64,000 bases of DNA from assembly GCF_030655195.1 (NCBI RefSeq), contig NZ_JAURWA010000009.1:3850-67849 (forward strand), written 5' to 3'. The notes beneath the pieces are model-generated. The model did not search any database. It saw only the letters and a program-made list of their open reading frames with translations, and had not been told where the DNA came from. The translations under genes and the position numbers were made by a program. Positions within the stretch are counted from its first letter, which is position 1; every line of letters starts with the position of its first letter. Shown in pieces: positions 11,194-31,371 of the stretch. Source of the stretch: Patulibacter sp. (GTDB taxonomy: Bacteria > Actinomycetota > Thermoleophilia > Solirubrobacterales > Solirubrobacteraceae).

Positions 11194-11754
11194 ATGCCTG
11201 ACGCCGAGACCGCCAAGGACCTCCTGGTCGCCGAGCTGCGCGAGCACGCACTGGTGCTCGGCGAGGTCACGCTGACCAGCGGCCGGACCGCGAGCTACTA
11301 CGTCGACGCCAAGCGGGCGATCATGCGCCCCGCCGGATTCCGGGCCCTCGGCGAGCTGCTCGCGGCCGAGGTGCAGCGCCTCGGGGCCACCGCCGTCGGC
11401 GGGCTGACGATGGGCGCCGATCCCGTCGCCTGCGCCGCGCTGGCCGGTGGCGCGGACGCCACCGCGTTCTTCATCCGCAAGGAGACGAAGGCCCACGGCC
11501 TGCAGCGCCGCGTCGAGGGCCCGTTCCTCACCGACGCGGACCGCTGCCTGGTCGTCGAGGACGTCGTCACCACCGGCGGCTCGACCGTCAAGGCGATCGA
11601 GGCCCTGCAGGCCGAGGGCCGCACCATCGTCGGCGTCGTCACCGTCCTGGACCGCCTCGCCGGCGGCGGCGCCCGCATCGAGGACGCCGGCGGCGCCCCC
11701 TACGTCGCGCTCACCACGATCGACGACGTCCATCCCGACCGCGACGACGCCTAG
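11194..11754 (+). CDS. pyrE: Orotate phosphoribosyltransferase
   Basis: LTSGRTASYYVD, RKETKAHG, PRPP-binding VVEDVVTTGGS. Confidence 0.93.
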   Translation: MPDAETAKDLLVAELREHALVLGEVTLTSGRTASYYVDAKRAIMRPAGFRALGELLAAEVQRLGATAVGGLTMGADPVACAALAGGADATAFFIRKETKAHGLQRRVEGPFLTDADRCLVVEDVVTTGGSTVKAIEALQAEGRTIVGVVTVLDRLAGGGARIEDAGGAPYVALTTIDDVHPDRDDA

Positions 11755-11859
11755 AGCCATGACGCACCGCTCCCCCCGCGGCCCGGCCGCCCCCGTGATC
11801 CGCCTCGCCCAGGGCGCCGCCGCCCTCCCCGCTGACGCGTCCTCCGCCGGGGTCGCCCG

Positions 11860-12135
11860 ATGACCCTGGTCGGCGTCATCGTCCTGTTCCTGGGCCTGGC
11901 GACCGCCGGCGCCGGCGCGGGACTCGCGCTGTTCGAGCGCCTCGAGCCGCGCCGCACCCTGACCCTGATGGGCGCCGGCGTCGTGATCGGCGCCGCCGGC
12001 CTGCTCCTGACCCTGGCCTCCGCCGACGACGGCGAGTCGCTCAGCGCGGGCACCTTCGTCCCCCTCGCGATCGTCCTGGCGATCGTGGCCTACGCGGCCT
12101 GGTTCGCGCGTCGGCCTCCGGCGCCGAAGGACTGA
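11860..12135 (+). CDS. Small 3-TM hypothetical membrane protein
   Basis: 91 aa with three hydrophobic stretches; GC3-rich codons. Confidence 0.7.
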   Translation: MTLVGVIVLFLGLATAGAGAGLALFERLEPRRTLTLMGAGVVIGAAGLLLTLASADDGESLSAGTFVPLAIVLAIVAYAAWFARRPPAPKD

Positions 12136-12222: not shown

Positions 12223-15200
12223 GTGCGCGTGGCCGTCCTCGGAGCCCTCGAGGTGTGGCGCGACGAGCGCCTCGTGCCCGTCGCGGGCGGACGCGTGCGA
12301 GCACTCCTGGTGCGCCTGGCCCTCGACGCCGGACGGGAGGTCGGGCGCGACGCGCTGATCGACGCGATCTGGGAGGAGTCGCCGCCCGCCGACGCCGGCC
12401 ACGCCCTGCAGGCCCTGGTCTCCCGCCTGCGCCGCACGCTGGAGTCCGACGCGGTGGTCTCCGGGACCAGCGGCTACCGGCTGGCGGCCGATCCCGCCGA
12501 CGTCGACGCCCTCGCGTTCGAGGTCGCCGCCCGGGCCGGATCCGCCGCGCTGCGGGCCGGGGACGCCGCCGGGGCCGCGGAGGTCCTGCGCGACGCGCTG
12601 GCGACCTGGCGGGGTCCGGCGCTCGGGGAGCTGGCGACGGACCGGCGCTTCGCCGCGCGGGCGGCGGACCGCCTCGAGAGCTCGCGTCTGGCCGCGACCG
12701 TCGACCGGATCGAGGCGGACCTCGCGCTCGGGGCCGGGACCGACCTCGTCCGGGAGCTCGACGACCTGGCGAGCGCCCACCCCCTCGACGAGCGGATCGC
12801 GGCGCAGCGGATGCGGGCGCTGACGGCCGCGGGCCGCGCGGCCGAGGCGCTCGACGGCTACGAGCGGATCCGCACCCGGCTGGACGACGAGCTCGGCGCG
12901 CTGCCGTCCGCCGAGCTCCGGGCGGCACATCTGTCGGTGCTCGGCGGGGCGGCCGGCCCCGGGGGCGGCGCCTCGGGCCGCGGCGACCGTCCCGAGGTCT
13001 CCCCCGCGGTCGGCGCGGTCGGGGCGGTCGGCGGTCCCGCGGCGCCGGCCGCCGTCGAGGCCCCTGCCCAGGAGGCCGTCCCGCGCCGCACGAACCTGCG
13101 CCACGCCATGACGAGCTTCGTCGGGCGCGAGGCGGAGGTCGAGCGCCTCGACGCCCTGCTGGCCGAGCACCGCCTGCTCACGCTGATCGGGCCGGGCGGC
13201 GCGGGCAAGACGCGCCTGGCCGGCGAGGTCGCGGGACGCCAGGGCGGACGGGCCGCCGACGGCGTCTGGATGGTCGAGCTGGCGACGATCACGGACCCGG
13301 GCGACGTCGGGGCGGGCGTCCTCGGGGCGCTCGGCCTGCGCGAGGCGAGCCTGCTGCGGCAGTCCCCCGCCGGCGGCACGGGTCCGGCGGCGGCGCCGGA
13401 CACCGACCCGGTGGCGCACCTGCTCGACGTCCTCGCCGAGCGCGAGACGGTGCTCGTCCTCGACAACTGCGAGCACCTCGTCGCCGCGGCCGCCGTCCTC
13501 GCCGACGAGCTGCTCGCGCACTGCCCGCGGCTGCGGATCATCGCCACCAGCCGCGAGCCCCTCGGCATCGCCGGGGAGCGGCTCGAGCAGGTCCCGCCCC
13601 TGGGCCTGCCGCCCGCGGACGCCGACGCCGCGGTGGCCATGGCCCACCCCGCGGTGCGGCTCTTCGCCGACCGCGCGGCCGACGCGTCGCCCGGCTTCGC
13701 CGTCGACGCGGGGACGGTGGGGAGCGTCGTCGAGATCTGCCGGCGCCTCGACGGCCTGCCGCTGGCGATCGAGCTGGCCGCCGCGCGCCTGCGGTCCCTG
13801 CCGGTCGCGCAGATCGCCGCGCGCCTCGACGACCGGTTCCGCCTGCTGACCGGCGGCAGCCGCGCCGCCTTGCCGCGGCAGCAGACGCTCCGCGCCGTCG
13901 TCGACTGGAGCTGGGACCTGCTGTCGGAGGACGAGCGGCTCCTCGCCCGGCGGGTCGCGGTCTTCCCCGCCGGCGTCACGCCGGAGAGCGCCGCGGCCGT
14001 CTGCGCGGACGACGACCTGGACGCCGACGCGGTGCTCGACCTGCTCGCCGCGCTCGTCGACCGCTCGCTGCTGGTCCTCGTCGACCGGGACGCGCCGCGC
14101 TACCGGATGCTCGAGACGATCCGCGAGTACGCGACCGAGCGGCTCACCGCGACGGGCGAGCTCGGCGCCACCCGCACGGCCCACGCCCGGTTCTTCGCCG
14201 GGCTGGCCGTCGAGGCGGACCCGCACCTGCGTGGCCCCGACCAGCTCGCCTGGTTCCGCAGGCTGCAGGCGGAGCGCGACAACCTGCAGGCCGCGCTGCG
14301 CTGGCTCGCCGAGGACGGCGACGCGCGCTCCGCCCTGGGCCTGGCGCTCTCCCTCTCCTGGTTCTGGGTCCTCTCGGGCAGCCCGAACGACGCGAGCGCC
14401 GCTGTCCGGCTCGCCCACGCGGTCCCCGGTGACGCGGACCCGCTCGACCGCCTCGTCGCGGAGAACCTCGCTCTGTTCGGCGACGACGCGATGACGCAGG
14501 ATCTGCGCGCGGACCTGTCGGGGCTGCTCGACGAGCTCGAGGCGATGGACCTGACGCCGCGCCCCGTCCTGATCGCCGCCGCCCCGGTCCTGGCCTGGTT
14601 CTCGGGGGATCCCGGGCGCGCCCAGCCGCTGTTCGCCGCCGCGCTCCACAGCGACGACCCGTGGGTCCGCGCGACCGTCCCGCTCGTGCTGGCGCAGACC
14701 GCCGAGAACGCCGGTGACGTCGAGGGCATCCGACGGCACCTCGACGAGGCGCTGGCCACCTTCCGCGCGATCGGCGAGCGCTGGGGTCTGACGGCGACCC
14801 TGAGCTCGATCGCGAGCCTGCGGATGCTCGAGGACGACCTCGACGGTGCCGCGGCGGCGCTCGAGGAGGCCCGCTCGCTGTTCCAGGAACTCGGAGCGGA
14901 GAGCGACAACGCGCGGCTCCTGCTCGACATCGCGGGCGTCCGCTGGCGCCAGGGGGATCTCGACGGCGCCCTCGACTACGCGCGCCGGGCGCGCGACGCC
15001 ACCGACGTCGGCGGCATCGAGGCGGCGTTCGCCGGGGCGTTCCTGGCACGCGTCTCGTGGCTCCTCGGTCGCGAGGACGAGGCCCGGGAGCTGATCGCCG
15101 CCGCGCTGCGGACGACCGACCGCGTCTCCCCCGTGCGCCCCGAGCACGGCCACATCCACGCGGCCGTCCGCGCCTCCGCCGTCCTGATCGCGGTCGACGA

Positions 15201-15531
15201 CGGCGGCCTGCGCACGGCTCGCGAGCACCTGGCGCTCGCCCACCCCGCGGCGGTCGGCACGGAGGACCAGCCCGTGATGGCGCTGGTCGGCGTCGCCCTC
15301 GCCGCCCTGGCCGAGCGCACCGGGGACGCGACCGCCGCCGCCGAGATCCTCGGGGCCGCCGCCCGGCTGCGCGGCGCGGCGGACCGCACCGACCCCGCGA
15401 TCGCCCGGCTGACCGCCCGGCTGCGGCAGACCCTCGGGGACGAGACGTTCGACGGGACGTACGCGAAGGGCCTCCGGCAGGACCGCGACGGGGCGCTGCG
15501 GCGGCTGGACCCGGCGACGCTCGGGGGCTGA
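12223..15531 (+). CDS. AfsR/SARP-type BTAD + NB-ARC/ATPase + TPR transcriptional regulator
   Basis: MRVAVLGALEV, HPLDER, FVGRE, GPGGAGKTRLA, VLDNCEH, LDGLPLAIELAAAR; 1102 aa. Confidence 0.93.
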   Translation: MRVAVLGALEVWRDERLVPVAGGRVRALLVRLALDAGREVGRDALIDAIWEESPPADAGHALQALVSRLRRTLESDAVVSGTSGYRLAADPADVDALAFEVAARAGSAALRAGDAAGAAEVLRDALATWRGPALGELATDRRFAARAADRLESSRLAATVDRIEADLALGAGTDLVRELDDLASAHPLDERIAAQRMRALTAAGRAAEALDGYERIRTRLDDELGALPSAELRAAHLSVLGGAAGPGGGASGRGDRPEVSPAVGAVGAVGGPAAPAAVEAPAQEAVPRRTNLRHAMTSFVGREAEVERLDALLAEHRLLTLIGPGGAGKTRLAGEVAGRQGGRAADGVWMVELATITDPGDVGAGVLGALGLREASLLRQSPAGGTGPAAAPDTDPVAHLLDVLAERETVLVLDNCEHLVAAAAVLADELLAHCPRLRIIATSREPLGIAGERLEQVPPLGLPPADADAAVAMAHPAVRLFADRAADASPGFAVDAGTVGSVVEICRRLDGLPLAIELAAARLRSLPVAQIAARLDDRFRLLTGGSRAALPRQQTLRAVVDWSWDLLSEDERLLARRVAVFPAGVTPESAAAVCADDDLDADAVLDLLAALVDRSLLVLVDRDAPRYRMLETIREYATERLTATGELGATRTAHARFFAGLAVEADPHLRGPDQLAWFRRLQAERDNLQAALRWLAEDGDARSALGLALSLSWFWVLSGSPNDASAAVRLAHAVPGDADPLDRLVAENLALFGDDAMTQDLRADLSGLLDELEAMDLTPRPVLIAAAPVLAWFSGDPGRAQPLFAAALHSDDPWVRATVPLVLAQTAENAGDVEGIRRHLDEALATFRAIGERWGLTATLSSIASLRMLEDDLDGAAAALEEARSLFQELGAESDNARLLLDIAGVRWRQGDLDGALDYARRARDATDVGGIEAAFAGAFLARVSWLLGREDEARELIAAALRTTDRVSPVRPEHGHIHAAVRASAVLIAVDDGGLRTAREHLALAHPAAVGTEDQPVMALVGVALAALAERTGDATAAAEILGAAARLRGAADRTDPAIARLTARLRQTLGDETFDGTYAKGLRQDRDGALRRLDPATLGG

Positions 15532-15544
15532 ACCGCCTGCCCGC

Positions 15545-17077
15545 TCAGGCCGGCTGCGCCGTGCGGGCGGCTGGCGGGGCCGCGGCCGGCGTCGCGGCCT
15601 CGGCGGGCTCCTCGACCGGGTGCTCCTCGACGGAGCGGGAGTCGGTCAGCGTCCAGGCGCCGTAGCCGGCGACCAGGCCAACGACGATCGCGAGGATCCC
15701 GTAGGTCACGCGCTCGCCGTGGAAGAACGACTGCACGAGGTCGGGGCTCCACGTGCCGGCGGGCAGGGCGGTAGTGACCAGGACGGCGATCAGCGTGCCG
15801 ACGACGGCGGTGCCGACGCTCGTGCCGACCTCCTGCGCGGTGTCGTTCAGCGCGGTGCCCATCGACGTGCGGTTGGCGGGCATCGCGTCGACGAGGGCGA
15901 CGGCGCAGATGGTCATGATCGTCCGCAGGCCGATGGTCATCACGACCATCGAGATCGCGATGGCGAGGTAGCCGTGGGAGACGCCCCACGACATGCCGCC
16001 GAGCGAGACGGCGAGCAGCCCGGCGCCGATCATGCAGGCGACGCGGTGCCCGAAGCGCTTCGCGAGGCCCTCGGAGAGCGGGGAAGCGAGCAGCATCGTG
16101 ACGATCAGCGGCAGGTTCGCCAGACCGGCCTTCACCGGGCTCCAGCCGTAGGCGTACTGGAAGTGCAGGATCAGGCCGAACATGACGGCGGCCATGGCGA
16201 TCGAGGTGCCGGCCTGCGCGATCGCGGCGCCGCGCACGGTGCCGTTCTTGAACAGGCCCAGGTCGAGCATCGGCGCGTCCGTGCGGCGCTCGTGACGGAC
16301 GAACCACGTGGCCGCACCGACCGCGCCGACGACGGCCGCGAGGGTGCCGGCGCCGAGCCAGCCGTGCTCGACCCCGCTGGTCAGCGAGTAGCACGCGAGC
16401 CCGATGGCGGCGACGCTGAGGACGGCGCCCGGCAGGTCGAGCCGGTCCTGGGTGAGGCCGTCGGGGTGGTCGGCCGCGACGCCCAGGCGGATCCCGACGT
16501 AGGCGATCAGAGCGATCGGCGCGTTGACGACGAGCAGCCACTCCCAGCTGACGTGGGCCAGGGCGGTGCCGCCGAGCAGCGGGCCGAGCACGAACCCGGA
16601 CAGGCCGACGGTGATCATCACCGTCATCGCGCGCATCCGCAGCACCTTGTCGTCGAACAGGCGGAAGACGAGCGAGTTGGTGATCGGCGCCATCATCGCG
16701 GCGGCGATCCCGAGACCGGCACGCAGCGCGATCAGCTCGCCGGCGGAGTGGACGAACACCACGAGCAGGCTCAGCCCGCCGAACAGGCCGAGCCCGACGC
16801 TGAGGACCCGCCGTCGTCCCCAGCGGTCGGCGATCGACCCGGCGGTCAGCAGCAGCCCGCCGAACGTCAGCGAGTACGCCCCGGTGACCCACTGCAGCCC
16901 GGTCGTCCCGCTGCCCAGGTCGCGCCCGATGGTGGGCAGCGCGATCGACAACAGCGTGTTGTCGACCATCTCGACGAAGAAGGCCAGGCAGAGGGCCGCC
17001 AGCGGGATCCACGCCGCGCGGAGCGACGTGTAGGTCCGCGGCCCGGCGGCGAGTGGTGCGGTGGTCGTGGAGCTCAT
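15545..17077 (-). CDS. MFS drug:H+ antiporter (DHA2-like)
   Basis: DNTLLSIALPTIGRDL, GSIADRWGRRR, WEWLLVVNAP; about 14 TM. Confidence 0.92.
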   Translation of the reverse strand: MSSTTTAPLAAGPRTYTSLRAAWIPLAALCLAFFVEMVDNTLLSIALPTIGRDLGSGTTGLQWVTGAYSLTFGGLLLTAGSIADRWGRRRVLSVGLGLFGGLSLLVVFVHSAGELIALRAGLGIAAAMMAPITNSLVFRLFDDKVLRMRAMTVMITVGLSGFVLGPLLGGTALAHVSWEWLLVVNAPIALIAYVGIRLGVAADHPDGLTQDRLDLPGAVLSVAAIGLACYSLTSGVEHGWLGAGTLAAVVGAVGAATWFVRHERRTDAPMLDLGLFKNGTVRGAAIAQAGTSIAMAAVMFGLILHFQYAYGWSPVKAGLANLPLIVTMLLASPLSEGLAKRFGHRVACMIGAGLLAVSLGGMSWGVSHGYLAIAISMVVMTIGLRTIMTICAVALVDAMPANRTSMGTALNDTAQEVGTSVGTAVVGTLIAVLVTTALPAGTWSPDLVQSFFHGERVTYGILAIVVGLVAGYGAWTLTDSRSVEEHPVEEPAEAATPAAAPPAARTAQPA

Positions 17078-17196
17078 GCCCGGCAGCATCCGCGAGCCCG
17101 CTCACAGCGCCCGCACACGGCGCTCACACGGGACCGCCCGGGCGTGTGCGAGCAGGCGCCACCGCGCGATCGCGGCCTCTAGGATTCCCGGAGCCC

Positions 17197-17268
17197 GCCC
17201 CCGTAGCTCAGTGGATAGAGCATTGGTTTCCTAAACCATGTGCGCAAGTTCGATTCTTGCCGGGGGCA
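17197..17268 (+). tRNA. tRNA-Arg (anticodon CCT)
   Basis: GCCCCCG acceptor/CGGGGGC-A, GCTC/GAGC D stem, TT-CCT-AA loop, GCAAG-TTCGATT-CTTGC T arm; one mismatch at top of anticodon stem; CCA not encoded. Confidence 0.95.
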
Positions 17269-17606
17269 TCGGAAGTACCTGAGAATCGAAGCTCGCTGTC
17301 TTACGCGCACGTCTCTCGTGCACATGGTTCTCTGGGCCACTCCCACGTCCCGACCGACTCGCGCGAGCGCTTAGGACGCCAGATTCCTCTCGGGATACTG
17401 AGGCGCGCGGCAAGAGCTCACCGTTCTGGGTCCTGGATTATCCTCAGTGGGCAGATCTGTGGCACGGATCGCTGCCCGGGGACCCGGGTCGAAACCCTGC
17501 CCCGAGTCGGGCGCCGATCGAGCGCTCGGGCTAGGGCCCTAGTTTCGTGAGCGAAACTTGGCCCGGGCTCCCGGCGTCCCAAGTGAAGTTGGGAACCCTC
17601 CCCCCA

Positions 17607-17636
17607 GATCCAAGTTTCGGACGCAATACTTGGATC
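17607..17636 (+). promoter_or_regulatory. Inverted repeat over Fic promoter (operator candidate)
   Basis: GATCCAAGT-N12-ACTTGGATC ending directly at GTG 17637; further palindromes CTAGGGCCCTAG (17531-17542) and AGTTTCG-tgag-CGAAACT (17541-17558). Confidence 0.55.
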
Positions 17637-18812
17637 GTGGATCTCGAACGACTCACCGCCAGCCCCATCGGCACAGTCGTTCCGCTCCGACTTCCCGACC
17701 CCCTCACGCGCAAGACGGTCGACGGCCACGCGTTCCTTCCCGAACCGCTGCCGGTCGAGGTCCAGCTCTCGACAAGCACGTGGACCACCGTCAACCGCGC
17801 CACTGCGTCCCTCGCCCGGCTCGACGGCACTGCCCGCCTGATCCCGAACCCCGGACTCCTGCGCCGCCCCGCCCTGCGCCGCGAGGCCCAGAGCACCAGC
17901 GCCCTCGAGGGCACCTACGCACCCATCGCGGACGTCCTGGCCGCCGACCAGGCGCAGACCGACCTCCCCGCCGCATTGCGCGAAGTCCTGAACTTCGAGC
18001 AGATGGCCGAGCTCGCGTTCTCCTGGCCCGACGATCGACGGCTCACCATCTCGATGCTCGGGGATCTCCAGCAGACCCTGGTCACAGGGACTGCTAGCGA
18101 ACTCGGCGACGCCGGACAGATCCGCAACCGCGTCGTCGTCATCGGGTCGCGCGGCCGGCCCCTCGCCGATGCCCGGTTCGTACCACCCCCGCCCGGAGAT
18201 CAGCTGCGCAGCGGCGTCGAAGCGCTTCTCGACTGGATCGAAACACCACCGGAGCTCCCGACCGTCGTCCAGGCCGCGATGGCTCACTATCAATTCGAGA
18301 CCCTGCACCCCTACTCCGACGGCAACGGCCGCCTCGGCAGGCTGCTCGTCATCGTCCAACTTCTGCGAGGCGCGATCATCCGGGAGCCTCTCCTCGTCGT
18401 CTCGCCTTGGTTCGAGGCACGCCGGACCGCCTACCAAGACGAACTGCTCGACCTCTCGTGCACCGGCGACTGGGACCGCTGGATCGCCTTCTTCGCCGAA
18501 GGCGTCGCCGCTTCCGCGGAGGAGTCCCGCAGCAAGGTCGAAGGCCTTCTCGGCCTCCAAACCGACCTTCGCGCCCGCGTCCACGCCGCCGGCAAACGCG
18601 GCGCCGCCGAGCGGCTCGCAGCCGACCTCGTCGGACGCCCCTACGTCTCACGGCCCGAGGTCGCGCGCCTATACGAGCTGTCGGGACAAGGCGCGGCCAA
18701 CGCGATCCAGGCACTCCAAGCCGTCGGGATCCTCGAACCGTCGGGATTCCGAACGCCCGCCGGCGCCGAAGTCTTCCGAGCGCCCGACGTCTTGACCCTC
18801 CTCACGAGTTGA
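17637..18812 (+). CDS. Fic family protein (class II-like, C-terminal HTH-like region)
   Basis: HPYSDGNGRLGR Fic motif; inhibitory-type TSALEG motif in the N-terminal part; start refined to GTG (MDLERLTASP). Confidence 0.93.
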   Translation: MDLERLTASPIGTVVPLRLPDPLTRKTVDGHAFLPEPLPVEVQLSTSTWTTVNRATASLARLDGTARLIPNPGLLRRPALRREAQSTSALEGTYAPIADVLAADQAQTDLPAALREVLNFEQMAELAFSWPDDRRLTISMLGDLQQTLVTGTASELGDAGQIRNRVVVIGSRGRPLADARFVPPPPGDQLRSGVEALLDWIETPPELPTVVQAAMAHYQFETLHPYSDGNGRLGRLLVIVQLLRGAIIREPLLVVSPWFEARRTAYQDELLDLSCTGDWDRWIAFFAEGVAASAEESRSKVEGLLGLQTDLRARVHAAGKRGAAERLAADLVGRPYVSRPEVARLYELSGQGAANAIQALQAVGILEPSGFRTPAGAEVFRAPDVLTLLTS

Positions 18813-18839
18813 CCGGACTCCCGTTATCTGGCGCCAGCT

Positions 18840-20234
18840 TCAGGATGCGGGGATGGTTCCGGCGGTGACGCGAGTTCCTGAAGTCTTCGCGTTCTCGACC
18901 TCAGCAGCAACGCCGCTGCTCGCGCGGTCGGGTTGCGACTGTCGGAACTCCAGCGCCTCCGGGTCCTCCACGTACTCGAGCAGGTCGCCCGCGAGGTCGA
19001 GCAGGTGTTCGCGCGCTTCTTGTGGTGTGGCGTAGAAGAACTCGCGGCGGAGGTTGACCATGTTGACGCGGCGGTCGGCCAGGCGCTGGTGCATCGCCGT
19101 TTCGATCCCGACCGCATCGTTGGCGAAGAACAACGCGTGCACATCGAAGCGGAACGGCACCGAGGCATCGCCGAGCTCGCGTACGCGATCCAAGGGCTCA
19201 AGGCGACGCGTCATGCCCACCTTGATCATTCGTTCCCCGAACGCCCCGACGTTCGAGATCACGTACACGTAGCCGGCGCGGATGTTCGCGGCGCGGTAGT
19301 CGACGTCGTTGATCGCCCGGTCCACGTCGTCGAGCTGCGCCCGGAGCTTCCCCGCGGCCTCGAGGTCGCCCTTGCTCTCCAGTGATGCCAGAGCGTTGGC
19401 GTAGTGCTGCCGTTCCTTGTCGAGTCGCTCGCGCTCGCGCTGCAGCTCCTGTTGGGCCTTGCGCTCCTCCCGCAGCCGAGCCTTTTCTTCGCGCTCGCGC
19501 TCCTTCTCTTCGGCGACCTTGGCGAGATAGTCGGCCGTCAGTTCGAGCTCGCGGATGCGCAAGCGGTGGTACCTGGGCGAGACCTCGATGCTCATCGTCC
19601 GGCCGAGCTTCGCGATCACCTCGCGGGACTTCGTCAGCCGCGACACGGCGCCGTCGAGCTTGTACGGCTTGAGACCGCGGACCAACGCGTCCGCCTCGGA
19701 GTTGTAGGCCCGCAACATCAGCTTGCAGTTCTCCCGCACCATCTTCCGACCCTGCGCCTCGGACCCGTTGACCGTCCAGCCCGTCGCCCCGGTCACCGCA
19801 CCGCCGTCAGCTCGCGCCATGGCCTTCATCGCTCCGCGAACGTCATCGAGCTCCGCCTTGTACGCGACGGCGTCGTCGAGGGGGTGCCGGAACTCGTACA
19901 CCCCGACCTCCTGCAGCAACTGCTCGTCGGTCGTCGCGACCACCGACCTGCGGAGCTCGTCCAGCTCCGCCCGTGCCTCCCCCACACTCCGCGCGAGATC
20001 GCGTAGCTGCGCTTCCCCTTCTGCCCGACCGGCCACGAGTTGCGCGTCGAGCTGCGCAAGGGCTTCGCGGCGCTCTCGGGTCGAGGTGTCGCGCAGGTCG
20101 ATGATCTGTCGTTGGAGTTCTTCGCGCTGCTGCTCGAGGTCGTAGACCGTCAGGGCGCCCGTACGATCGAGGTGCGCGCGGAGCTCCGCCACCCCTCGGC
20201 TGAGCTCCCCGTTCCGGTCCTGCAGCTCCCGCAC
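18840..20234 (-). CDS. DUF4041 + T5orf172/GIY-YIG-like nuclease (PD-lambda-1/SNIPE-like anti-phage protein)
   Basis: Coiled coil, KLMLRAYNSEAD, ELELTADY, EQRELQ-type charged helix, GYVYVISNVGAFG..IKVGMTRR..PLDRVRELGDASVPF.FDVHA..LRREFF. Confidence 0.88.
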   Translation of the reverse strand: MRELQDRNGELSRGVAELRAHLDRTGALTVYDLEQQREELQRQIIDLRDTSTRERREALAQLDAQLVAGRAEGEAQLRDLARSVGEARAELDELRRSVVATTDEQLLQEVGVYEFRHPLDDAVAYKAELDDVRGAMKAMARADGGAVTGATGWTVNGSEAQGRKMVRENCKLMLRAYNSEADALVRGLKPYKLDGAVSRLTKSREVIAKLGRTMSIEVSPRYHRLRIRELELTADYLAKVAEEKEREREEKARLREERKAQQELQRERERLDKERQHYANALASLESKGDLEAAGKLRAQLDDVDRAINDVDYRAANIRAGYVYVISNVGAFGERMIKVGMTRRLEPLDRVRELGDASVPFRFDVHALFFANDAVGIETAMHQRLADRRVNMVNLRREFFYATPQEAREHLLDLAGDLLEYVEDPEALEFRQSQPDRASSGVAAEVENAKTSGTRVTAGTIPAS

Positions 20235-20238
20235 CCGC

Positions 20239-20424
20239 GCCCCGCGCTCCCAACAGCGGCACCTTCGAGGGCTGCTCTGCCGTGGCCTCGACGGGGACCT
20301 TCACCTCCGGCTCTGGTTCGGCGACCCCCGCGTCGTCGCCCACCAGGGGCACTCGGTCGTCCGCCGAAGGAGATCCACCGGCGCCGTACCTGACCTCGTC
20401 ACGCACCCGCTTCCACACACTCAT
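20239..20424 (-). other. Out-of-frame 62-codon N-terminal segment of the DUF4041 gene
   Basis: ATG 20424 lies 6 nt after TAGCGT; MSVWKRVRDEV...KVPLLGARG has typical codon usage, then 1 nt offset to RVRELQ frame. Confidence 0.65.
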
Positions 20425-20542
20425 TCCGCGACGCTACGTCCCCACCACACCGATGACAAGCGGAATGGACTGCCGCTTCCAACAGATCGAAGGTTTGCTG
20501 AGACTGCTCGCCCGACGTGACCGTTGCGGCCACGATGCTCAG

Positions 20543-21031
20543 ATGGCACGCCGCCGACCGTCGCTCGCCAACGAAGCCGCCGACGCCTTTCTCCGCCTCA
20601 CGACCGGCGCGGGCTTCCTCGCCGGATTGTTCTGGGCGGCGAACCATCCAGTGACGCCGACGAACTGCACCGGCACCTCGAGCGACTCGCTCGGAAAATG
20701 CATGGGCGACACCCTCTGGACGACGTTCCAGCCCTACCTCGTCGGCATCGGCGGCGGCACACTCGCCGGAGCGCTCCTCGCCGTACTGGTCATCGTCGTG
20801 ATCCGCCTCTCGGCCCACGCCTTCCAACGTGCCCCCGGGCCCGCGAACGGAGGGACAGCGTCAGGAGCAGATCGTCCCGTCGTCGCCTCGGCGTCGGTGG
20901 CCGGCCCGCGCGGCCGGTCGATGATCGCCCGGTACCCCGGCACCTGTTCCGGCTGCCGCTCGTCCATCCGACCGGGCGATCGGATCACGCACATCGGGCG
21001 GCAGAACAACCGCTGCGCGGCCTGCGGCTGA
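20543..21031 (+). CDS. Two-TM hypothetical protein with C-terminal Cys4 zinc-finger-like motif
   Basis: 162 aa; TM1 FLRLTTGAGFLAGLFWAA, loop Cys pair, TM2 YLVGIGGGTLAGALLAVLVIVVI; tail ARYPGTCSGC-x19-CAAC. Confidence 0.75.
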   Translation: MARRRPSLANEAADAFLRLTTGAGFLAGLFWAANHPVTPTNCTGTSSDSLGKCMGDTLWTTFQPYLVGIGGGTLAGALLAVLVIVVIRLSAHAFQRAPGPANGGTASGADRPVVASASVAGPRGRSMIARYPGTCSGCRSSIRPGDRITHIGRQNNRCAACG

Positions 21032-21100
21032 GACCGCCCCCAGCGGCCCCCGGAGAGGTCACGGCCGCGGACCCAAGGACGAGCGATCAGGGCCCGATTT

Positions 21101-21137
21101 CTTGTGCCCCAGCGGCACCTTGTGCTTCGTCTTGTGC
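21101..21137 (+). repeat. Three CTTGTGC direct repeats near attR (arm-type-site candidates)
   Basis: CTTGTGC at 21101, 21119, 21131; 6/7 match CTCGTGC at 17315 near attL. Confidence 0.55.
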
Positions 21138-21225
21138 AAGTTTCGTCGAAGCTGGCCTGCCCGAATCGCCTTTGAAACCTGCCTGTTTCGACCTAGACCG
21201 ACCTGGCCCGACCCCCGCGATCGTG

Positions 21226-21266
21226 TTCCTAAACCATGTGCGCAAGTTCGATTCTTGCCGGGGGCA
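21226..21266 (+). repeat. attR: duplicated 3' 41 bp of tRNA-Arg
   Basis: TTCCTAAACCATGTGCGCAAGTTCGATTCTTGCCGGGGGCA identical to 17228-17268. Confidence 0.95.
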
Positions 21267-21378
21267 CTGCGGGCGCCGCGCCCGGGCAGCGCGGACACCG
21301 GCGGTGCTTCGCGTGTCGCGCCGAACGATGGTGCCTCGAGTGCATCCATTCGGGCCTTCACGGCGTTGGTCCCGTCAC

Positions 21379-21618
21379 ATGCTCAGGGCTGACCCGTCCC
21401 CACCGGGAGAGTTGCGTCATCTTGCCCACGCACTCGTCCAGCGCCTGGACGTCCTCACGGACCGTTGGCTCGCCGGAACGGCCCCGACGCCTCAGCAGAT
21501 CGACGCAGCGGTCGACGACGTCGCCGTGCTGCGCGATCTGATTGCAACTCCCCAGCGACAGATCGACGTTCCAGAGACGCACGAGACCGCGCCCTCGGCC
21601 CGGGAGCGCAGGGCCTGA
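21379..21618 (+). CDS. Small helical hypothetical protein (79 aa)
   Basis: MLRADPSPPGELRHLAHALVQRLD...; TGATG overlap with next ORF. Confidence 0.5.
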   Translation: MLRADPSPPGELRHLAHALVQRLDVLTDRWLAGTAPTPQQIDAAVDDVAVLRDLIATPQRQIDVPETHETAPSARERRA

Positions 21619-21836
21619 TGGCAGCGTCCGGGAGCACGATCCCCGTCGCAACAGAGGACGAGGCGAGAAGCACCGCCGTCACCGACGCGCTGAGCCGCCT
21701 CGCCATCGAACTGGATCGCACCACGCGCCACCTCGATCAGTACGTCTCCCGTCTCCACGGCGAACACCTCGCGCCGCAGGACGGCGGAAGCGTCGCCTCA
21801 ACGACCGGTCGGCTCCCCGGACGCCCGCTTCGCTGA
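21618..21836 (+). CDS. Small helical hypothetical protein (72 aa)
   Basis: MAASGSTIP...LSRLAIELDRTTRHLDQYVSRL; starts in the stop codon of the previous ORF. Confidence 0.45.
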   Translation: MAASGSTIPVATEDEARSTAVTDALSRLAIELDRTTRHLDQYVSRLHGEHLAPQDGGSVASTTGRLPGRPLR

Positions 21837-21864
21837 TCGCGCGGTCGGCGGCGCTCGCGGGCGG

Positions 21865-22857
21865 TCACGCCGTAGCGATCGGCGTCGGATCGCCGGTGGT
21901 GCGGGTGGCGAACGCCAGCGTCGCGAGTGCGATCAGGAGCCATCCGCCGAGGATCAGCGCTGGTCCCAGCGCGCCGGTGGCGTCGAACAGCCCGGTGGCG
22001 CGGAGCAGGCTGCCGGCGGCGCCCGGAGGCAGGATCTGGCCGAGCGTGGCCCAGCCGTCCGGCAGCCAGTAGGGGCCCGAGGCCAGCCCGGACAGCGGGT
22101 TGCCGACCAGCATCGCGATCGCCGCGCCGATCCCGAAGCCGACGTAGCCGAAGGCGGTCATCAGCGCCAGCTGGGTCATCGCCAGCGCGCCGATCCCGAG
22201 GCTCAACCCGAGGCCGTTCAGCAGGATGCTGCCGTCGATCGTCTCGAACACGAGTTGCAGGAAGAGCGCGACGCCGAAGCCGGCGATCAGGGAGTACGTC
22301 GCGACGCCCACGATCTCGAGGCGGTTGCGGCGCGCTCCGGTGAGCAGGTTGAAGAAGAGCGCGACCGGGAGCAGGCCGCCGAACACCAGGGGCAGGCCGG
22401 CGCCGGCCAGCCCGGTCCCGCGCGGGTCGCCCTGGGGGAACGGGACGACCTCGACGGGCCTTGCGATCGTCCCGGCGGCCTGGGCGCCTGCCGAGCCGGC
22501 GGAGGTCAGCGCGGCGGTGACCTGTGGTGCTGCGGCCATGGCCGTGTAGATCCGCCACTGCCGGCCGGTCGACTCGATCCCGCCGACCACCTCACGGTCC
22601 TTGATCACCGCCTGCAGCGCGCGGGCGTCTTCGTATGGGCGGACGTCCCACCCACGAGGATCCAGCCTGGCGCCGGCCTGTTGGGCGGCGACGCCGACCG
22701 TGCCGATGGGTGCGGCGTTGGGGCCACTGCCGTGGTTCGGCAGGACGAACGCGAGGAGCATCACCACGATCACCGCAGCGAGCGCAGCGGACAGGCCCAG
22801 CACCTTCTTTGCGTCGTCACCGGCGCGAGGTGCGGAGGGGCGTTCGTCGGGAACCAT
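21865..22857 (-). CDS. ABC-2/DUF3533-type 6-TM permease-like membrane protein
   Basis: N-terminal TM, extracellular loop, DPRGTGL, VGNPLSGLASGPYWLP..W, LPPGAAGSLLR. Confidence 0.75.
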   Translation of the reverse strand: MVPDERPSAPRAGDDAKKVLGLSAALAAVIVVMLLAFVLPNHGSGPNAAPIGTVGVAAQQAGARLDPRGWDVRPYEDARALQAVIKDREVVGGIESTGRQWRIYTAMAAAPQVTAALTSAGSAGAQAAGTIARPVEVVPFPQGDPRGTGLAGAGLPLVFGGLLPVALFFNLLTGARRNRLEIVGVATYSLIAGFGVALFLQLVFETIDGSILLNGLGLSLGIGALAMTQLALMTAFGYVGFGIGAAIAMLVGNPLSGLASGPYWLPDGWATLGQILPPGAAGSLLRATGLFDATGALGPALILGGWLLIALATLAFATRTTGDPTPIATA

Positions 22858-22922
22858 GGTGCCTTCCAGGTAAATGAGAATGAGCCTTCAACTTCCTGTC
22901 GGCACGCTACCAAATAAGTTGA

Positions 22923-22951
22923 GAGGCAGTTCTCAAGTTGAGGACTGCCTC
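22923..22951. promoter_or_regulatory. TetR operator candidate (14-bp-arm palindrome)
   Basis: GAGGCAGTTCTCAA-G-TTGAGGACTGCCTC, 1 mismatch, in divergent permease/TetR promoter. Confidence 0.75.
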
Positions 22952-22973
22952 GTTTTTGCGCTACGGTCCTGTG

Positions 22974-23639
22974 GTGTCCCCGTCGATCGACGCCGTCCCC
23001 GAGCCGCCGTTGCGCCGTGACGCCCGGCGCAACGTCCAGCGCATCCGCGCCGCGGCGCTGGAGGTCTTCCGCGAGCAGGGCCTCGGCGCCTCGCACGAGG
23101 TCATCGCCAGACGCGCCGACGTGAGCGTCGGCACCGTGTACCGCCGGTTCCCCGACCGCGAAGAGCTCATCGACGCGCTGCTGGACGACGAGTTGCTCGT
23201 CGTCGTCGACATCGCCCAGCAGGCGCTGGACACCCCGGACGCGTGGGACGGCCTGGTCGCGCTGCTCGAACGCTCTCTGGAGCTGGCGAGCGCCAACGTC
23301 GCGCTGCAACAGCTGCTGACCGGCAGCCAGCACGGCTCGCACAGGGTCGAACGCATCCGGGCGCGGCTCGAACCGCTCGCGGCGGCGGTGATGCAGCGCG
23401 CGCGCGACAGCGGCGCGATCCGCGCCGACGCGGACACCCAGGACCTACCGCTGCTGCAGCTGATGCTCAGCTCGCTGCTGGACGCCAGCCGTGACCTTGC
23501 CCCGCAGCTGTGGCGTCGCTATCTGGCGATCTTCCTGGACGGCCTGCGGCCGGGCGAGCCTCGCACCCAGCTTCCACCGCCGATCGACCTCAGCATCGTC
23601 CACGACGTGGTGGTCCGCTCCCACACCGTCGGACGCTGA
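22974..23639 (+). CDS. TetR family regulator
   Basis: RRDARRNVQRIRAAA..IARRADVSVGTVYRRFPDREEL; GTG 6 nt after TACGGT. Confidence 0.92.
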   Translation: MSPSIDAVPEPPLRRDARRNVQRIRAAALEVFREQGLGASHEVIARRADVSVGTVYRRFPDREELIDALLDDELLVVVDIAQQALDTPDAWDGLVALLERSLELASANVALQQLLTGSQHGSHRVERIRARLEPLAAAVMQRARDSGAIRADADTQDLPLLQLMLSSLLDASRDLAPQLWRRYLAIFLDGLRPGEPRTQLPPPIDLSIVHDVVVRSHTVGR

Positions 23640-23674
23640 GATCGGACGCGGAGCGGGCGGTCGAGACGCTGGTG

Positions 23675-24382
23675 TTAGGAGGGCAGCTGGGTCTCGACTG
23701 GCGAGCCCTCGGCGGCCATCGTCCAGAGAGCCTCGGCGAGCGTGTCCGGCTCGACCACGGGATACGGGATCGGCGCGGCGTCGTCGCCGCCGGCGAGCGC
23801 CGTGTGCGCGGCGCTGCCTTCGATCAGGGCCGAGATCAGCAGCGATCCCACGTGGATGCCGTGCGCGGAGAGTTCGGCGGCGAGGCCGTGGGCGTAGTTC
23901 CGGGTGGCGGCCATGGCGGGGCCCGCGCCGCTGCGGTCGGCCTTGGGCTGCGCCGCGGTGGTGCCGAAGCCGAACAGGATCGCTCCGCTGCGTCGCTCGG
24001 TCATCTCCGGAAGCACGGCCTGGACGATGTCGACCGGGGCCAGCGTCAGCAGCTCCACGTTTGCTCGCAGCTCGGCCGAGGTGAGCGATCGCGCCGGGGT
24101 GAAGCCGACCTCCGACCCGACGGGGCCGTAATAGACGGTGTCGATGCGTCCCATCTCCTTCCGGATGCGTTCCACCACGTCCGACGCCCCGCCGCGAGAG
24201 GAGAGATCTGCAGGAAAGGCGCGTGCGGTGATGCCGTCCGCCGAGAGCTCGTCGGCCAACGCGGCGAGGGGCGCGGGGCGCCGTGCGACGAGTGCGACCT
24301 CGAAGCCTTCGCGACCGAACCGCCTGGCGACCGCGGAACCCAGACCGGGACCGGCACCGAACACCGCAATAACCTGAGACAT
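23675..24382 (-). CDS. Atypical SDR oxidoreductase
   Basis: VFGAGPGLG, VALVARR; canonical YxxxK not evident. Confidence 0.85.
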   Translation of the reverse strand: MSQVIAVFGAGPGLGSAVARRFGREGFEVALVARRPAPLAALADELSADGITARAFPADLSSRGGASDVVERIRKEMGRIDTVYYGPVGSEVGFTPARSLTSAELRANVELLTLAPVDIVQAVLPEMTERRSGAILFGFGTTAAQPKADRSGAGPAMAATRNYAHGLAAELSAHGIHVGSLLISALIEGSAAHTALAGGDDAAPIPYPVVEPDTLAEALWTMAAEGSPVETQLPS

Positions 24383-24424
24383 GCCTCAAGTTATAGCGAA
24401 CCAGGGCGGAGGTACTCTCGACAC

Positions 24425-24964
24425 GTGGTCCGTGCCGACGCCCGACGCAACGCAGAACGGCTGAGGGCGGCGGCGCAGGAGGTGTTCGCCGAGCAGGGCC
24501 TCGGCGCCTCGCTCGAAGCGATCGCCGCCCGGGCAGGCGTGAGCATCGGAACCCTCTACAACCGCTTCGGCTCCCGGGAGGGGCTCATCGATGGCGCGAT
24601 GACGGGCCTCTTGCGAGAGCAGGTCGATTCGATCGCGGCACGCGCCGAAGCCTGCGTCGACCCGTGGGACCGGCTCGAGAGCCACCTGCACGGCCTGGTG
24701 GAGATGCAGATCCTGACGCCGGCGCTGGCCCAGTCCATCGCCCAGGCACCGCCCGGCAGCGCGCTCGCCCAGGAGTGCACCACCGCGATGAACGGTGTCG
24801 GCGCGGCGCTCGCCGACGCGATCGACGCCGGCTCCGCCCGTCCGGACGCGCACATCGACGACGTCGCGGCGCTGCTGGTGGCCAACGTGGCCGTGCTCTC
24901 CACCCTCGGCGCCGAATCGGCCCGCCGCCTCAGCACCATCGTGCTCGCCGGCCTGCGCCGCTGA
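24425..24964 (+). CDS. TetR family regulator
   Basis: RADARRNAERL..IAARAGVSIGTLYNRFGSREGL; GTG 6 nt after TACTCT. Confidence 0.92.
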   Translation: MVRADARRNAERLRAAAQEVFAEQGLGASLEAIAARAGVSIGTLYNRFGSREGLIDGAMTGLLREQVDSIAARAEACVDPWDRLESHLHGLVEMQILTPALAQSIAQAPPGSALAQECTTAMNGVGAALADAIDAGSARPDAHIDDVAALLVANVAVLSTLGAESARRLSTIVLAGLRR

Positions 24965-25040
24965 GACGTCCCCACGACGCAAGTCCCTCAGAACGCAGCA
25001 CGCACGTCGACCCCCGACGACCGATCCAGGCGGGGTGGCC

Positions 25041-25505
25041 TCAAGGACGCAGGATCGGCGGGTGGGTTCCCCCGGAGACCTCGAACTCCCCCGGCCGCAC
25101 CTCGTCCCCGCAGGCCTCGCACACCACGACGGGATGCAGCTCTGCGCCACAACGGTGACGGAACACGGCCGTTGGCTGATGGTGCTCTCCCGTGTGGCGC
25201 TCGCCCCAGACCTTGAGCGCGAGGAGCACCGGGACGAGGTCGTACCCGGCGTCGGTCAGGACGTACTCGTCGCGGGGCGGGCGCTCGGAGTACCGGCGGC
25301 GGGCGATGACGCCGGCGGACTCCAGCTTGCGCAGACGGGAGGTCAGCAGCGACCGCGGAGCCCCGGTCAGCGTGGCCAGCTCGGAGAACCGGCGATACCC
25401 GTAGAGGATCTCCCGCAGCAACGGCAACGAGTGGCTGTCGCCGAGCACGCCGACCGCGTCGGTGAGCGAACACGTCCTGGGACTCGGTAGCACTTCTGGA
25501 CCCAT
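25041..25505 (-). CDS. HxlR-family winged-helix regulator with C-terminal Cys/His motif
   Basis: CSLTDAVGVLGD, RRFSEL, LTSRLRKL, RDEYVLTDAG, HRCG..VVVCEACG. Confidence 0.9.
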   Translation of the reverse strand: MGPEVLPSPRTCSLTDAVGVLGDSHSLPLLREILYGYRRFSELATLTGAPRSLLTSRLRKLESAGVIARRRYSERPPRDEYVLTDAGYDLVPVLLALKVWGERHTGEHHQPTAVFRHRCGAELHPVVVCEACGDEVRPGEFEVSGGTHPPILRP

Positions 25506-25566
25506 GCCTGTACGGTACACCGCAGTCAGTCCGGAAGTTGGACCTACAACCGCGATCGAGCAGACC

Positions 25567-25704
25567 ATGACCGTCTCCGAGACCCTGACCACCCGCAACG
25601 CGTCGTTCGCCACCGAGGCCTTCCAGCCCGCGTTGCGGATGATGCCGTCGCTGCGCACGATCGTGATCGGGTTCTGCGCTCCCGTCGCGGCGTTCGCCGG
25701 TTAG
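25567..25704 (+). pseudogene. 5' remnant of a beta-carbonic-anhydrase-like gene
   Basis: MTVSETLTTRNASFATEAFQPALRMMPSLRTIVIG resembles (from memory) actinobacterial beta-CA N-termini; diverges just before the expected CxDxR motif. Confidence 0.6.
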
Positions 25705-25710
25705 GGCGTC

Positions 25711-26355
25711 GTGCGCCTCCACCACCTGCCCGGGAGTCGATCGACCCGGGTGCTCTGGACCCTCGAGGAGCTCGGCATCGACTACGACCTCCACGTCATG
25801 ACCGGGGCCGAGCGCACCGGCCCCGAGCATCGCGCGCTGCACCCGCTCGGCCGCGTCCCGGTCCTCGAGCTCGACGACGGCCGGCACGTCTTCGAGTCCG
25901 CCGCCATCTGCCTGCACCTCGCCGACCTCCATCCGGACGCCGGCCTGGCCCCGCCCGTCGGCACGAGCGACCGCGCTGCGCTCTACCAATGGCTGTTCTT
26001 CGCGATGGCCGAGCTCGAGCCGGCCGTCTTCGGATGGATGCGGGCCACACGGGGCGGGACGCTCCAGGAGGTCGAGGCTGCCGCTCAGCACTTCGCCACC
26101 GTCGCCGCGGTCCTCCGCGACGTCGTGAGCGAGCGGCGGTGGATGCTCGGCGACACCTTCACGGTCGCCGACGTGCTCTGCAGCGGCCCGCTCGGCACCG
26201 CCTACCGCCGCGGACTAGCCGACGAGGATGGCCCGCTCCGCGAGTACGTCGAGCGCGCGGCGGCGCGCCCGGCGAACGTCCGCGCCGAGAGCGTCCGACA
26301 CCCCGGCGCGGCATCGGCCAGAACGACCATGCCCCGCGGATCGAGGACGAGATGA
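25711..26355 (+). CDS. Glutathione S-transferase family protein
   Basis: SRSTRVLWTLEELG, HPLGRVPVL, FESAAICLHL, LGDTFTVADV. Confidence 0.92.
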   Translation: MRLHHLPGSRSTRVLWTLEELGIDYDLHVMTGAERTGPEHRALHPLGRVPVLELDDGRHVFESAAICLHLADLHPDAGLAPPVGTSDRAALYQWLFFAMAELEPAVFGWMRATRGGTLQEVEAAAQHFATVAAVLRDVVSERRWMLGDTFTVADVLCSGPLGTAYRRGLADEDGPLREYVERAAARPANVRAESVRHPGAASARTTMPRGSRTR

Positions 26356-27233
26356 CACGCACCCCAGGACCGCTCGAGGCGCCGCTCCCTGACACCCCCG
26401 TCCCGTCGGGGCGGGTCCGCGCGGCCGGCGTCGACACGTTCTTCTACGACACCGGGACCGGCGAGGTCCCGACGATCTGCGTGCACGGGAACCCGGACTC
26501 GGCCGACGCCTGGCTGCCGATCCTCCACCGGGCGGGCGAGATCGGTCGCGTCATCGCTCCGGACCTCCCCGGGTTCGGGCGCTCGGAACGACCCGACCCC
26601 GCGGCGTTCGATGCGACGCTGGTCGCGTACGTCGCATGGTTCGACGCATTCGTCGACGCCCTGGACGTGCCCCGCTTCAACCTCGTCGTCCACGACTGGG
26701 GCAGCCTCGCCCTCGCCGCCGCAGCGCGGCGGCCACAGCAGCTCGAGCGACTCGTCGCGATCGACATCGTCCCGCTCTCGGCGGACTACCGCTGGCACTG
26801 GTTGGCGACCTACCTCTGGCGACCCCGCGTGGTGGGCGAGGTCGGCATGACCGTCTTCAACCGCTTCACCATCAAGCTCCTGACTCGCCTGCAGCGCCCG
26901 GGCCTCCGCCCGCTCGACGCCGACCTCCTGGACCGCGTGAAGCGCGACCTCGACCCAGGGATGAAGCGCGCGATCCTCAGCCTCTACCGCTCAGCCGATC
27001 CCGAGCTCCTGGGGCGCTACGGCGCAAACCTGCCCGACGTCGTCGCGCCGGCGCTCGTCCTCTGGGGCACCGACGACCCCTACGTCGGCCCCCACGAAGC
27101 GGACGTCCTGACGGCGGCCCTCGGCGGCCCCACCGAGACCGCGCTCGTGAAGGGTGGACACTGGCCGATGCTCGACACCGACGACGTGTTCGACCGCACG
27201 ATCGCCTTCCTCGGGGACGGAACCGGCGCCTGA
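26352..27233 (+). CDS. Alpha/beta hydrolase, haloalkane-dehalogenase/epoxide-hydrolase-like
   Basis: VHGNP, APDLPGFGRS, VVHDWG, LWGTDDP, GGHWP; ATGA overlap with GST. Confidence 0.88.
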   Translation: MTRTPGPLEAPLPDTPVPSGRVRAAGVDTFFYDTGTGEVPTICVHGNPDSADAWLPILHRAGEIGRVIAPDLPGFGRSERPDPAAFDATLVAYVAWFDAFVDALDVPRFNLVVHDWGSLALAAAARRPQQLERLVAIDIVPLSADYRWHWLATYLWRPRVVGEVGMTVFNRFTIKLLTRLQRPGLRPLDADLLDRVKRDLDPGMKRAILSLYRSADPELLGRYGANLPDVVAPALVLWGTDDPYVGPHEADVLTAALGGPTETALVKGGHWPMLDTDDVFDRTIAFLGDGTGA

Positions 27234-27377
27234 ACCGGCCCGAGCGCACGGTTCTGAGGTCGACCGCCGTCCGGGAGCCGACCGCTCGTCGGACGCTCGT
27301 GAGCGATCGCGGGCCCTGGGCCGCCGGTCCACGGTGACGGGAGCCCGGCACAGGACCGTCCCGCGGAAGTCGGTCCC

Positions 27378-27863: not shown

Positions 27864-27920
27864 GTGCTTGTCCTTCGATCGGAGCCCGCCATTCGGGACG
27901 CGCGGCGGGTGGTCGAGCTG

Positions 27921-31358: not shown

Positions 31359-31371
31359 GGGATCTCCACGG

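Follow-up and report, generated by a model that had tools for sequence, protein, structure and literature searches.

The 64,000-nucleotide stretch of Patulibacter sp. DNA considered here (contig NZ_JAURWA010000009.1, positions 3,850 to 67,849; hereafter the window, in whose own coordinates all positions are given) carries a 4-kb islet delimited by a repeat of the 3′ part of a tRNA-Arg gene. The gene itself, tRNA-Arg(CCT), is intact (17197–17268, plus strand; predicted by ARAGORN and matched by Rfam RF00005 at 68.4 bits) and is the sole tRNA gene that ARAGORN finds in the window. It is the integration target, and its 3′ part forms the core of the left attachment (att) site, attL (17228–17268, plus strand). 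The second copy, the attR core (21226–21266, plus strand), is a displaced 3′ tRNA fragment that an exact repeat search matches to attL at 41 of 41 positions, with a spacing of 3998 bp from start to start. A preliminary description of this DNA had reported a perfect 41-bp repeat bounding the islet and beginning in the anticodon loop, and both observations hold: the CCT anticodon is at 17230–17232, so that the repeat opens together with the anticodon loop, at tRNA position 32, and runs to the very end of the tRNA. For islands of tyrosine integrases, crossover centred on the anticodon and displaced 3′ fragments of tRNA genes are the norm (PMC4383910). No third copy of the core occurs in the window at up to 3 mismatches, nor at 25 or more ungapped identities out of 41, and none of 100 shuffled sequences (0/100) contained any match to the repeat. 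The islet is also compositionally distinct, with a guanine–cytosine (GC) content of 0.62–0.72, mostly 0.66–0.70, as compared to 0.72–0.82 in the flanks.

Contents and borders of the islet

The coding content of the islet comprises SoFic, SNIPE and an open reading frame (ORF) that we call ORF161, with no relaxase or conjugation gene. The first of these, at 17547–18812 on the plus strand, encodes a SoFic-type Fic/DOC protein with the Pfam domains Fic_N and Fic and a PADLOC SoFic match at 1.3e-75 that spans profile positions 7–358 of 361. Its longest ORF has 421 aa, and homologues of 391 aa suggest a start at the GTG at 17637. With both domains, a full-length profile and a catalytic Fic motif that is intact as read from the translation (HPYSDGNGRLGR), the protein belongs to the SoFic group of AMPylating abortive-infection toxins (PMC12249575; 10.1101/2022.05.11.491447). 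The SoFic of E. coli has been described together with a small downstream antitoxin, AS1 (PMC12249575). In the window, the stops of SoFic (18812) and SNIPE (18840) are just 27 nt apart, and there is therefore no room for a downstream AS1-like gene; the window protein thus resembles published SoFic in its domain architecture and near full-length profile and differs from it in having no space for such a gene, and AS1 may not be universal among SoFic.

SNIPE, also known as PD-lambda-1, lies on the minus strand. Its nuclease body (18840–20234), a 464-aa ORF read from an internal GTG and recognized by both Pfam and PADLOC, combines the central DUF4041 domain (PF13250, 8.7e-18) with the C-terminal T5orf172/GIY-YIG nuclease domain (PF10544, 3.2e-14) expected of SNIPE, matches the PADLOC PD-Lambda-1 model at 6.4e-112, and has homologues at 87–93% identity. 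Related loci are referred to here by the labels L083 to L097, and two further contigs as X2 and X4. Alignment with L091 and L083 places the 62 N-terminal codons out of frame at 20235–20424 (minus strand; ATG at 20424, MSVWKRVRDEV...), split from the nuclease body by a +1 frameshift that results from an extra G in a short G-run near 20240. X2 and X4 have one base fewer at 20240, and the frame is continuous in three relatives (L091, L083 and L085). SNIPE cuts phage DNA at injection, its variable N-terminal region providing membrane targeting, and deletion of this region is toxic in the E. coli protein (PMC13190303). The SNIPE of the window and its clade agrees with the published one (PMC13190303) in domain architecture and near full-length profile; unlike it, the window copy does not have the targeting region joined to the nuclease body, that region being frameshifted off, and the window clade has no predicted transmembrane helix. 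The window gene may be a young pseudogene, may encode an N-terminally truncated protein, or may be a switchable gene.

Transcribed divergently from SNIPE, ORF161 (20546–21031, plus strand) has a frame backed by third-position GC content and encodes a 161-aa protein in which two hydrophobic segments are combined with a CxxC...CxxC zinc ribbon at the C terminus. It matches no family of Pfam or PADLOC, and phrog_1581 only weakly. Genes of 162 aa are called at its position in L083 and L091, the copy in L089 is frameshifted, and throughout it is the conserved last gene before the attachment-site arm, always adjoining it. It is conceivable that ORF161 acts as a membrane partner of those SNIPE homologues that have no transmembrane helix. 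Judged by its predicted gene content, the islet is a miniature anti-phage defence island with SoFic and SNIPE as cargo.

The arm that leads from ORF161 to the attR core, the P arm, holds three tandem CTTGTGC repeats (21101–21137, plus strand; starts at 21101, 21119 and 21131), identified by motif search and by conservation. YTTGTGC has three matches on both strands of the 64-kb window, all of them within 21101–21137, and a cluster of 3–4 copies is kept in L083, L089, L091 and L085; we regard the cluster as putative arm-type integrase-binding sites. Junction alignments show CTGTTTCG and GACCCCCGyGAwCGyG as conserved blocks in the core-proximal part of the arm (21138–21225, plus strand), immediately before the core. 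The arm on the attL side (17269–17546) has no YTTGTGC repeat. It begins with a 20-nt trailer-like sequence, TCGGAAGTACCTGAGAATCG (17269–17288, plus strand), recognized by its similarity to the DNA downstream of the tRNA in relatives: L095 and L087 have similar sequence after the tRNA, L083 and L089 after the solo cores, and a comparison of junctions finds it absent 3′ of attR in the window. TCGGAAGTACCTGAGAATCG may prolong the att homology in imperfect form, or a P′ arm of the element may begin with it; as an alternative to the P′ arm, it may be a native tRNA trailer. Beyond it lies a non-coding spacer (17289–17536) that is unique to the window genome and unalignable with the L095 spacer; it stands where related islands have arm sites and an integrase, and it has no Pfam match in any frame, no Rfam match and no YTTGTGC motif. 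Excision between the two cores would be predicted to yield an attB junction of ...GAGCATTGGT, core and CTGCGGGCGCC, and an attP junction of ...CGCGATCGTG, core and TCGGAAGTACC.

On the far side of attR, islet-like low GC (0.67–0.69) persists for about 600 bp in a right-hand border zone (21267–21860) that a third-position GC frame plot shows to have no clear coding frame. The zone has no Pfam or PHROG match and no homology to any fetched locus; it may belong to the native flank or be what is left of another decayed element. Over 16900–22000, Rfam at E<=0.1 returned the tRNA only. Folding, used as a test for a native terminator, gave no significant structure 3′ of either core copy in the window, and a scan for promoters and terminators was uninformative.

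The preliminary description had seen no recombinase ORF or remnant in or next to the islet, and this is borne out. Pfam finds no recombinase among the islet ORFs; a six-frame Pfam search at E<=5 over 17100–17600 and 20180–21900 returned nothing recombinase-like; and tblastn of the integrase of the L085 element against the whole 64-kb window had a best E of 0.62, far from the islet. Across the window, 30 further ORFs supported by third-position GC content (GC3), together with the precomputed Pfam annotation of 21237–32857, include no integrase, serine recombinase or transposase, in a scan that has small gaps since it is limited to ORFs with such support. GC3 was used to choose real frames because spurious ORFs are plentiful in this GC-rich genome. 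The hallmarks of a phage satellite or prophage are likewise missing, as the islet has no integrase, replication, packaging or structural genes. IMG/VR holds no match for the 41-mer and no relatives of ORF161 or of the L087 integrase described below, and the only matches in plasmid and phage collections were partial DUF4041 genes at 66–78% identity and the tRNA-Arg of a phage, neither an att nor an ORF161 module being among them.

Related islands at the same tRNA and core

The exact 41-mer occurs in four metagenome contigs, and several related loci place an integrase beside the same tRNA or the same core. In L087, the same tRNA is followed on the same strand by a gene for a 456-aa Phage_integrase protein, a 49-nt upstream region is conserved with the window, and two YTTGTGC copies lie between the core and the integrase start, inside a 15-mer common to L085 and L089. 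L088 and L090 have, directly after the same tRNA, a Phage_integrase gene of ~324–340 aa that reads toward it. L085 encodes a SNIPE at 87% aa identity and has a P arm with four YTTGTGC copies (three CTTGTGC and one TTTGTGC) and a partial core of 26/41, directly beyond which comes the 3′ end of a gene for a 448-aa tyrosine integrase. The boundary at the first base of the anticodon loop recurs in L083, L088, L089 and several metagenomes; furthermore, several contigs from other metagenomes match 17228–17269 only, start exactly at 17228 and have unrelated sequence upstream, and so constitute independent attR-type junctions. Because the same boundary recurs and integrases adjoin the same tRNA or core in relatives, the 41-nt repeats are a real att pair of the tyrosine-integrase type. 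The fragments of related islands that are available contain no conjugation, mobilisation or phage genes. One of them, L088 1032–2205, is a 1.1-kb islet that runs from tRNA-Arg(CCT) to a second core with 2 mismatches and has the integrase as its sole content, forming a mirror image of the window.

The core and the arm beside it have diverged to very different degrees. The core is identical to that of the window at 41/41 positions in L089 and 40/41 in L083, and the adjacent 200-nt P arm is 72–75% identical, a contrast expected under neutrality with a probability of about 1e-6 for L089 and 9e-5 for L083. The L083 core is, moreover, the exact tRNA allele of L095. The far greater conservation of the core than of the P arm and this identity of alleles therefore indicate that the core has been selected or re-templated as a recombination site. 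In L091, the last 100 nt before the core are ~75% identical to window 21126–21225 and nearer to L089, the rest of the module being 93% identical, a pattern that suggests recombination breakpoints within the P arm of L091.

The two halves of the islet have separate distributions. The right-hand module of 2.4 kb, traced through close SNIPE homologues, starts at 18811 and is found at 93% nt identity over 18811–21254 in L091 and L092, with SNIPE, the 162-aa ORF, the P arm and the core, and with AraC-type and ABM genes in place of the window Fic. The unmatched 1.6 kb of a 94% variant islet (X4, L091) was considered as a place for the missing integrase and rejected, as it holds these AraC-type and ABM genes. 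L083 and L084 carry the module at 78% identity between IclR-led and ABC-transporter genes. In L089, a contig that shares its sequencing project with L087, a frameshifted ORF161 precedes the P arm and core, and the neighbouring genes encode GIY-YIG/PP2C and HEAT-repeat proteins. The homology of the Fic cassette runs from ~17537 to 18812 and stops at the Fic stop codon in all relatives. Given this sharp junction at the Fic stop codon, the islet is a mosaic in which two modules meet where a gene ends.

The closest relative, L095-97, consists of three Logan contigs that were found via close Fic homologues and that share the left-flank synteny of the window. Nucleotide identity of L095 to the window amounts to 81% over 10735–11068, 86% over the phosphoribosyltransferase (PRTase) gene at 11178–11763, 76% over a small ORF at 11860–12113, 94.6% over the tRNA region and 86.6% over Fic. 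The order in L095 is the tRNA, a 300-nt spacer and Fic in the window orientation, and the spacer retains the arm-site 15-mer with 1 mismatch. L095-97 is without SNIPE, ORF161 or a second core copy, and, as its contigs run unbroken through the tRNA, the core k-mers must be unique in that genome. Some 80–790 nt past Fic, at L095 3088–3873 and also at the ends of L096 and L097, there are IS3-family transposase fragments and a terminal hairpin. These fragments explain the contig breaks of L095-97, and their position suggests that an insertion sequence (IS) element lies behind the loss of the distal island end in the L095 lineage. In L094 (Patulibacter sp. S7RM1-6), Fic adjoins the tRNA in inverted orientation. 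Altogether, the tRNA-Arg(CCT) site is occupied in 5/5 relatives (L087, L088/L090, L094, L095-97 and X2/X4), each time with different content, and it is therefore a hotspot.

Origin of the islet

We consider it probable, at roughly 0.6, that the islet is a decayed, non-autonomous genomic island of the cis-mobilizable element (CIME) type, lodged in the 3′ half of tRNA-Arg(CCT) in a Patulibacter-like actinobacterium and now no more than a small anti-phage defence islet. Loss of the integrase with retention of the att repeats is a common and well-understood fate of integrating genomic islands. The ancestral island would have entered tRNA-Arg(CCT) by crossover in the anticodon loop, using an attP that, as in L087, comprised a P arm with CTTGTGC, the 41-nt core, ~20 nt of homology resembling a trailer, and a P′ arm that held repeats as well as the integrase. 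The tRNA-proximal (P′) side would have borne both integrase and arm sites, again as in L087, and this end would later have been lost, with the spacer and the SoFic cassette taking its place. With the integrase end lost, the islet would be unable to excise by itself, and its movement would depend on a cognate integrase supplied in trans or, as described for CIMEs, on accretion with an element that comes in. Decay and mosaicism are visible in the SNIPE frameshift, in the module junction at the Fic stop and in an attL side without arm repeats. The loss of the integrase probably predates the split between the window and L095, because L095 has SoFic beside the tRNA at a divergence like that of host genes. 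One of the two origins put forward in the preliminary description, a recently reduced island, is thus supported in its adjective and doubtful in its adverb: reduction is supported by the att pair, the integrase-bearing relatives (L085, L087, L088 and L090), the conserved attR end and the SNIPE frameshift, and the date is called into question by L095-97, which already has SoFic at the integrase position with host-like divergence.

Several observations weigh against a decayed island, at least in its simplest form. The Fic gene of L095-97 is 87% identical at the nucleotide level, in line with the 76–86% of flanking host genes, and there is no second core copy; the adjacency of tRNA and SoFic hence looks older than the perfect attR. 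Were attR neutral and older than the L095 split, the chance of 0 changes in its 41 nt would be ~0.007–0.06, and a history that is simple, with a single island, a single deletion and a recent date, therefore fails to fit. Either a later event brought in or renewed the right module or attR, or attR was homogenised with the tRNA by gene conversion, or it is still under selection. The trailer-like 20 nt follow attL and not attR, which plain integration does not predict unless they were part of the attP of the element. No empty site was encountered in any relative examined, and the related islands show no conjugation or phage genes. Finally, the occurrence of the block in relatives as ancestral core sequence had been named in advance as evidence against an island, and the left, Fic-bearing part does stand at the same tRNA there as conserved sequence.

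This last finding also favours the view that the repeat has nothing to do with site-specific recombination and arose by chance or by local duplication of the tRNA 3′ half within ordinary chromosome, since the tRNA and the Fic half are conserved in relatives at a divergence like that of the flanks. Set against this are the absence of any match in 0/100 shuffles, the islet GC below that of the flanks, the occurrence of the right half in unrelated contexts, the same anticodon-loop boundary in L083, L088, L089 and several metagenomes, and the integrases that adjoin the same tRNA or core elsewhere; the recurrence of the core boundary next to integrases effectively refutes this account, which we hold to be very improbable. 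A more serious competitor, unlikely as we judge it, takes up the other origin put forward in the preliminary description, mobilisation in trans: the islet would be a minimal element that is still active, a defence cassette with att sites at both ends and no integrase of its own, excised and integrated by one that is encoded elsewhere in the genome or on an incoming element, whether in trans or through accretion in the manner of CIMEs. Its attL and attR are perfect, its P arm keeps the three-copy CTTGTGC cluster that occurs nowhere else in the 64 kb, its core is far better conserved than the flanks across relatives, cognate-type integrases exist in related contigs, and a perfect attR is hard to square with an old, neutrally decaying remnant. 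However, the attL arm is without arm-type repeats, no integrase was found in the 64 kb, SNIPE is frameshifted, relatives that lack attR have the left half fixed next to the tRNA, and the right module adjoins ordinary metabolic and regulator genes in L091 and L083 with no 4-kb unit. Read depth in the source run (SRR13727533) is 63.5 over the islet and 63.9 and 61 over the flanks, with no excess circular copy and no joint of attL to attR (3998 bp) listed, as seen in contigs built at k=31, which is shorter than the 41-nt repeat, such that attB and attP are indistinguishable from attL and attR and unitigs break in the repeat. Slightly less probable again is a variant in which the mobile unit is smaller, the defence gene or genes, ORF161, the CTTGTGC repeats and the core constituting an integrase-less cassette that is shuttled by community integrases, its att site kept perfect by selection. 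If true, such a shuttled cassette would be the tRNA-site analogue of cassette capture, spreading anti-phage genes among Solirubrobacterales.

As unlikely as the active element, in our estimate, is that the islet is left over from a tandem array, the apparent attR being a hybrid junction with a second, integrase-bearing island to its right that has since been deleted or has decayed into 21267–21860. tRNA sites commonly harbour tandem arrays and decayed partners (PMC5704250, PMC4383910), the L085 integrase lies directly beyond the core on that very side, and an array would account both for the ~600 bp of low GC without a clear frame to the right of attR and for the missing trailer-like 20 nt expected after a native attR. 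Against it, no integrase remnant is detectable in any frame of 21267–21900 (Pfam at E<=5, tblastn), the window has no third core copy even at the loosest cutoff (>=25/41), and the 600 bp are without homology to any fetched island.

Known systems and flanking sequence

CIME is a category for decayed ICEs (integrative and conjugative elements) and IMEs (integrative and mobilizable elements) of streptococci (PMC5704250; ICEberg 2.0, PMC6323972). Like them, the islet keeps both attL and attR, has no integration or transfer genes left, and sits at a tRNA 3′ end targeted by several distantly related integrases, which makes accretion with an incoming element possible in principle. Unlike them, it is known from sequence only, its attL arm is apparently stripped of arm sites, its host is an actinobacterium of the class Thermoleophilia and its cargo consists of anti-phage genes. 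As regards descent from an ICE or IME, integrase-bearing relatives exist (L085, L087 and L088), and the available fragments include no conjugation or mobilisation genes. With tRNA islands of the Islander type (PMC4383910; Williams 2002, cited there), the islet shares an intact tRNA gene accompanied by a displaced direct 3′ fragment, a boundary at the anticodon-loop crossover and an anomalous composition. It differs in having no integrase in the interval, and Islander would therefore filter it out as inactive or damaged (PMC4383910).

In its packing of single-gene systems by an att site, and in cassettes that are swapped with junctions at gene ends, the islet also resembles att-proximal defence hotspots. 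Such hotspots are found next to the att sites of P2/P4-type integrative elements. The difference is that the carrier element of the islet is gone and only the att-proximal cargo is left. The defence-island concept in general has been treated elsewhere (10.1101/2022.05.11.491447). Taken as a decayed island, the islet is an ordinary remnant of a kind already known, which matters little beyond annotation; nonetheless, it documents tRNA-Arg(CCT) as a hotspot of integration and of defence genes in Patulibacter-like Thermoleophilia, a poorly studied group, and it illustrates how att-proximal defence cargo (SoFic and SNIPE) may outlast the integrase of its carrier island. The CTTGTGC cluster beside the core is a concrete candidate for the arm site that cognate integrases bind. 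Should the islet turn out to be mobilisable in trans, it would provide a compact natural case of CIME-type spread of defence genes outside Firmicutes.

A comparison with an empty tRNA-Arg site, suggested in the preliminary description, yielded none among the five relatives examined, and the two neighbours of the islet gave no other route to one. On the right, the 330-aa membrane protein has no homologue above 49% identity. On the left, the major facilitator superfamily (MFS) transporter led to 80 loci; in the 11 closest, homology stops at 17130, and 0/13 of those checked had the tRNA, the regulator and MFS pair being a laterally shared block in its own right. This block, a BTAD/STAND regulator and the MFS transporter at window 12223–17130, is absent from L095 between the small ORF (11860–12132) and the tRNA promoter. 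It is common to distant Solirubrobacterales at 80–85% nt identity, the MFS protein alone is 77–94% identical in Streptomyces and Nocardioides, and in L094 the BTAD gene lies on the opposite side of the tRNA and Fic. From these comparisons, the regulator and MFS block seems to be an insertion, acquired laterally, that lies just upstream of the tRNA.

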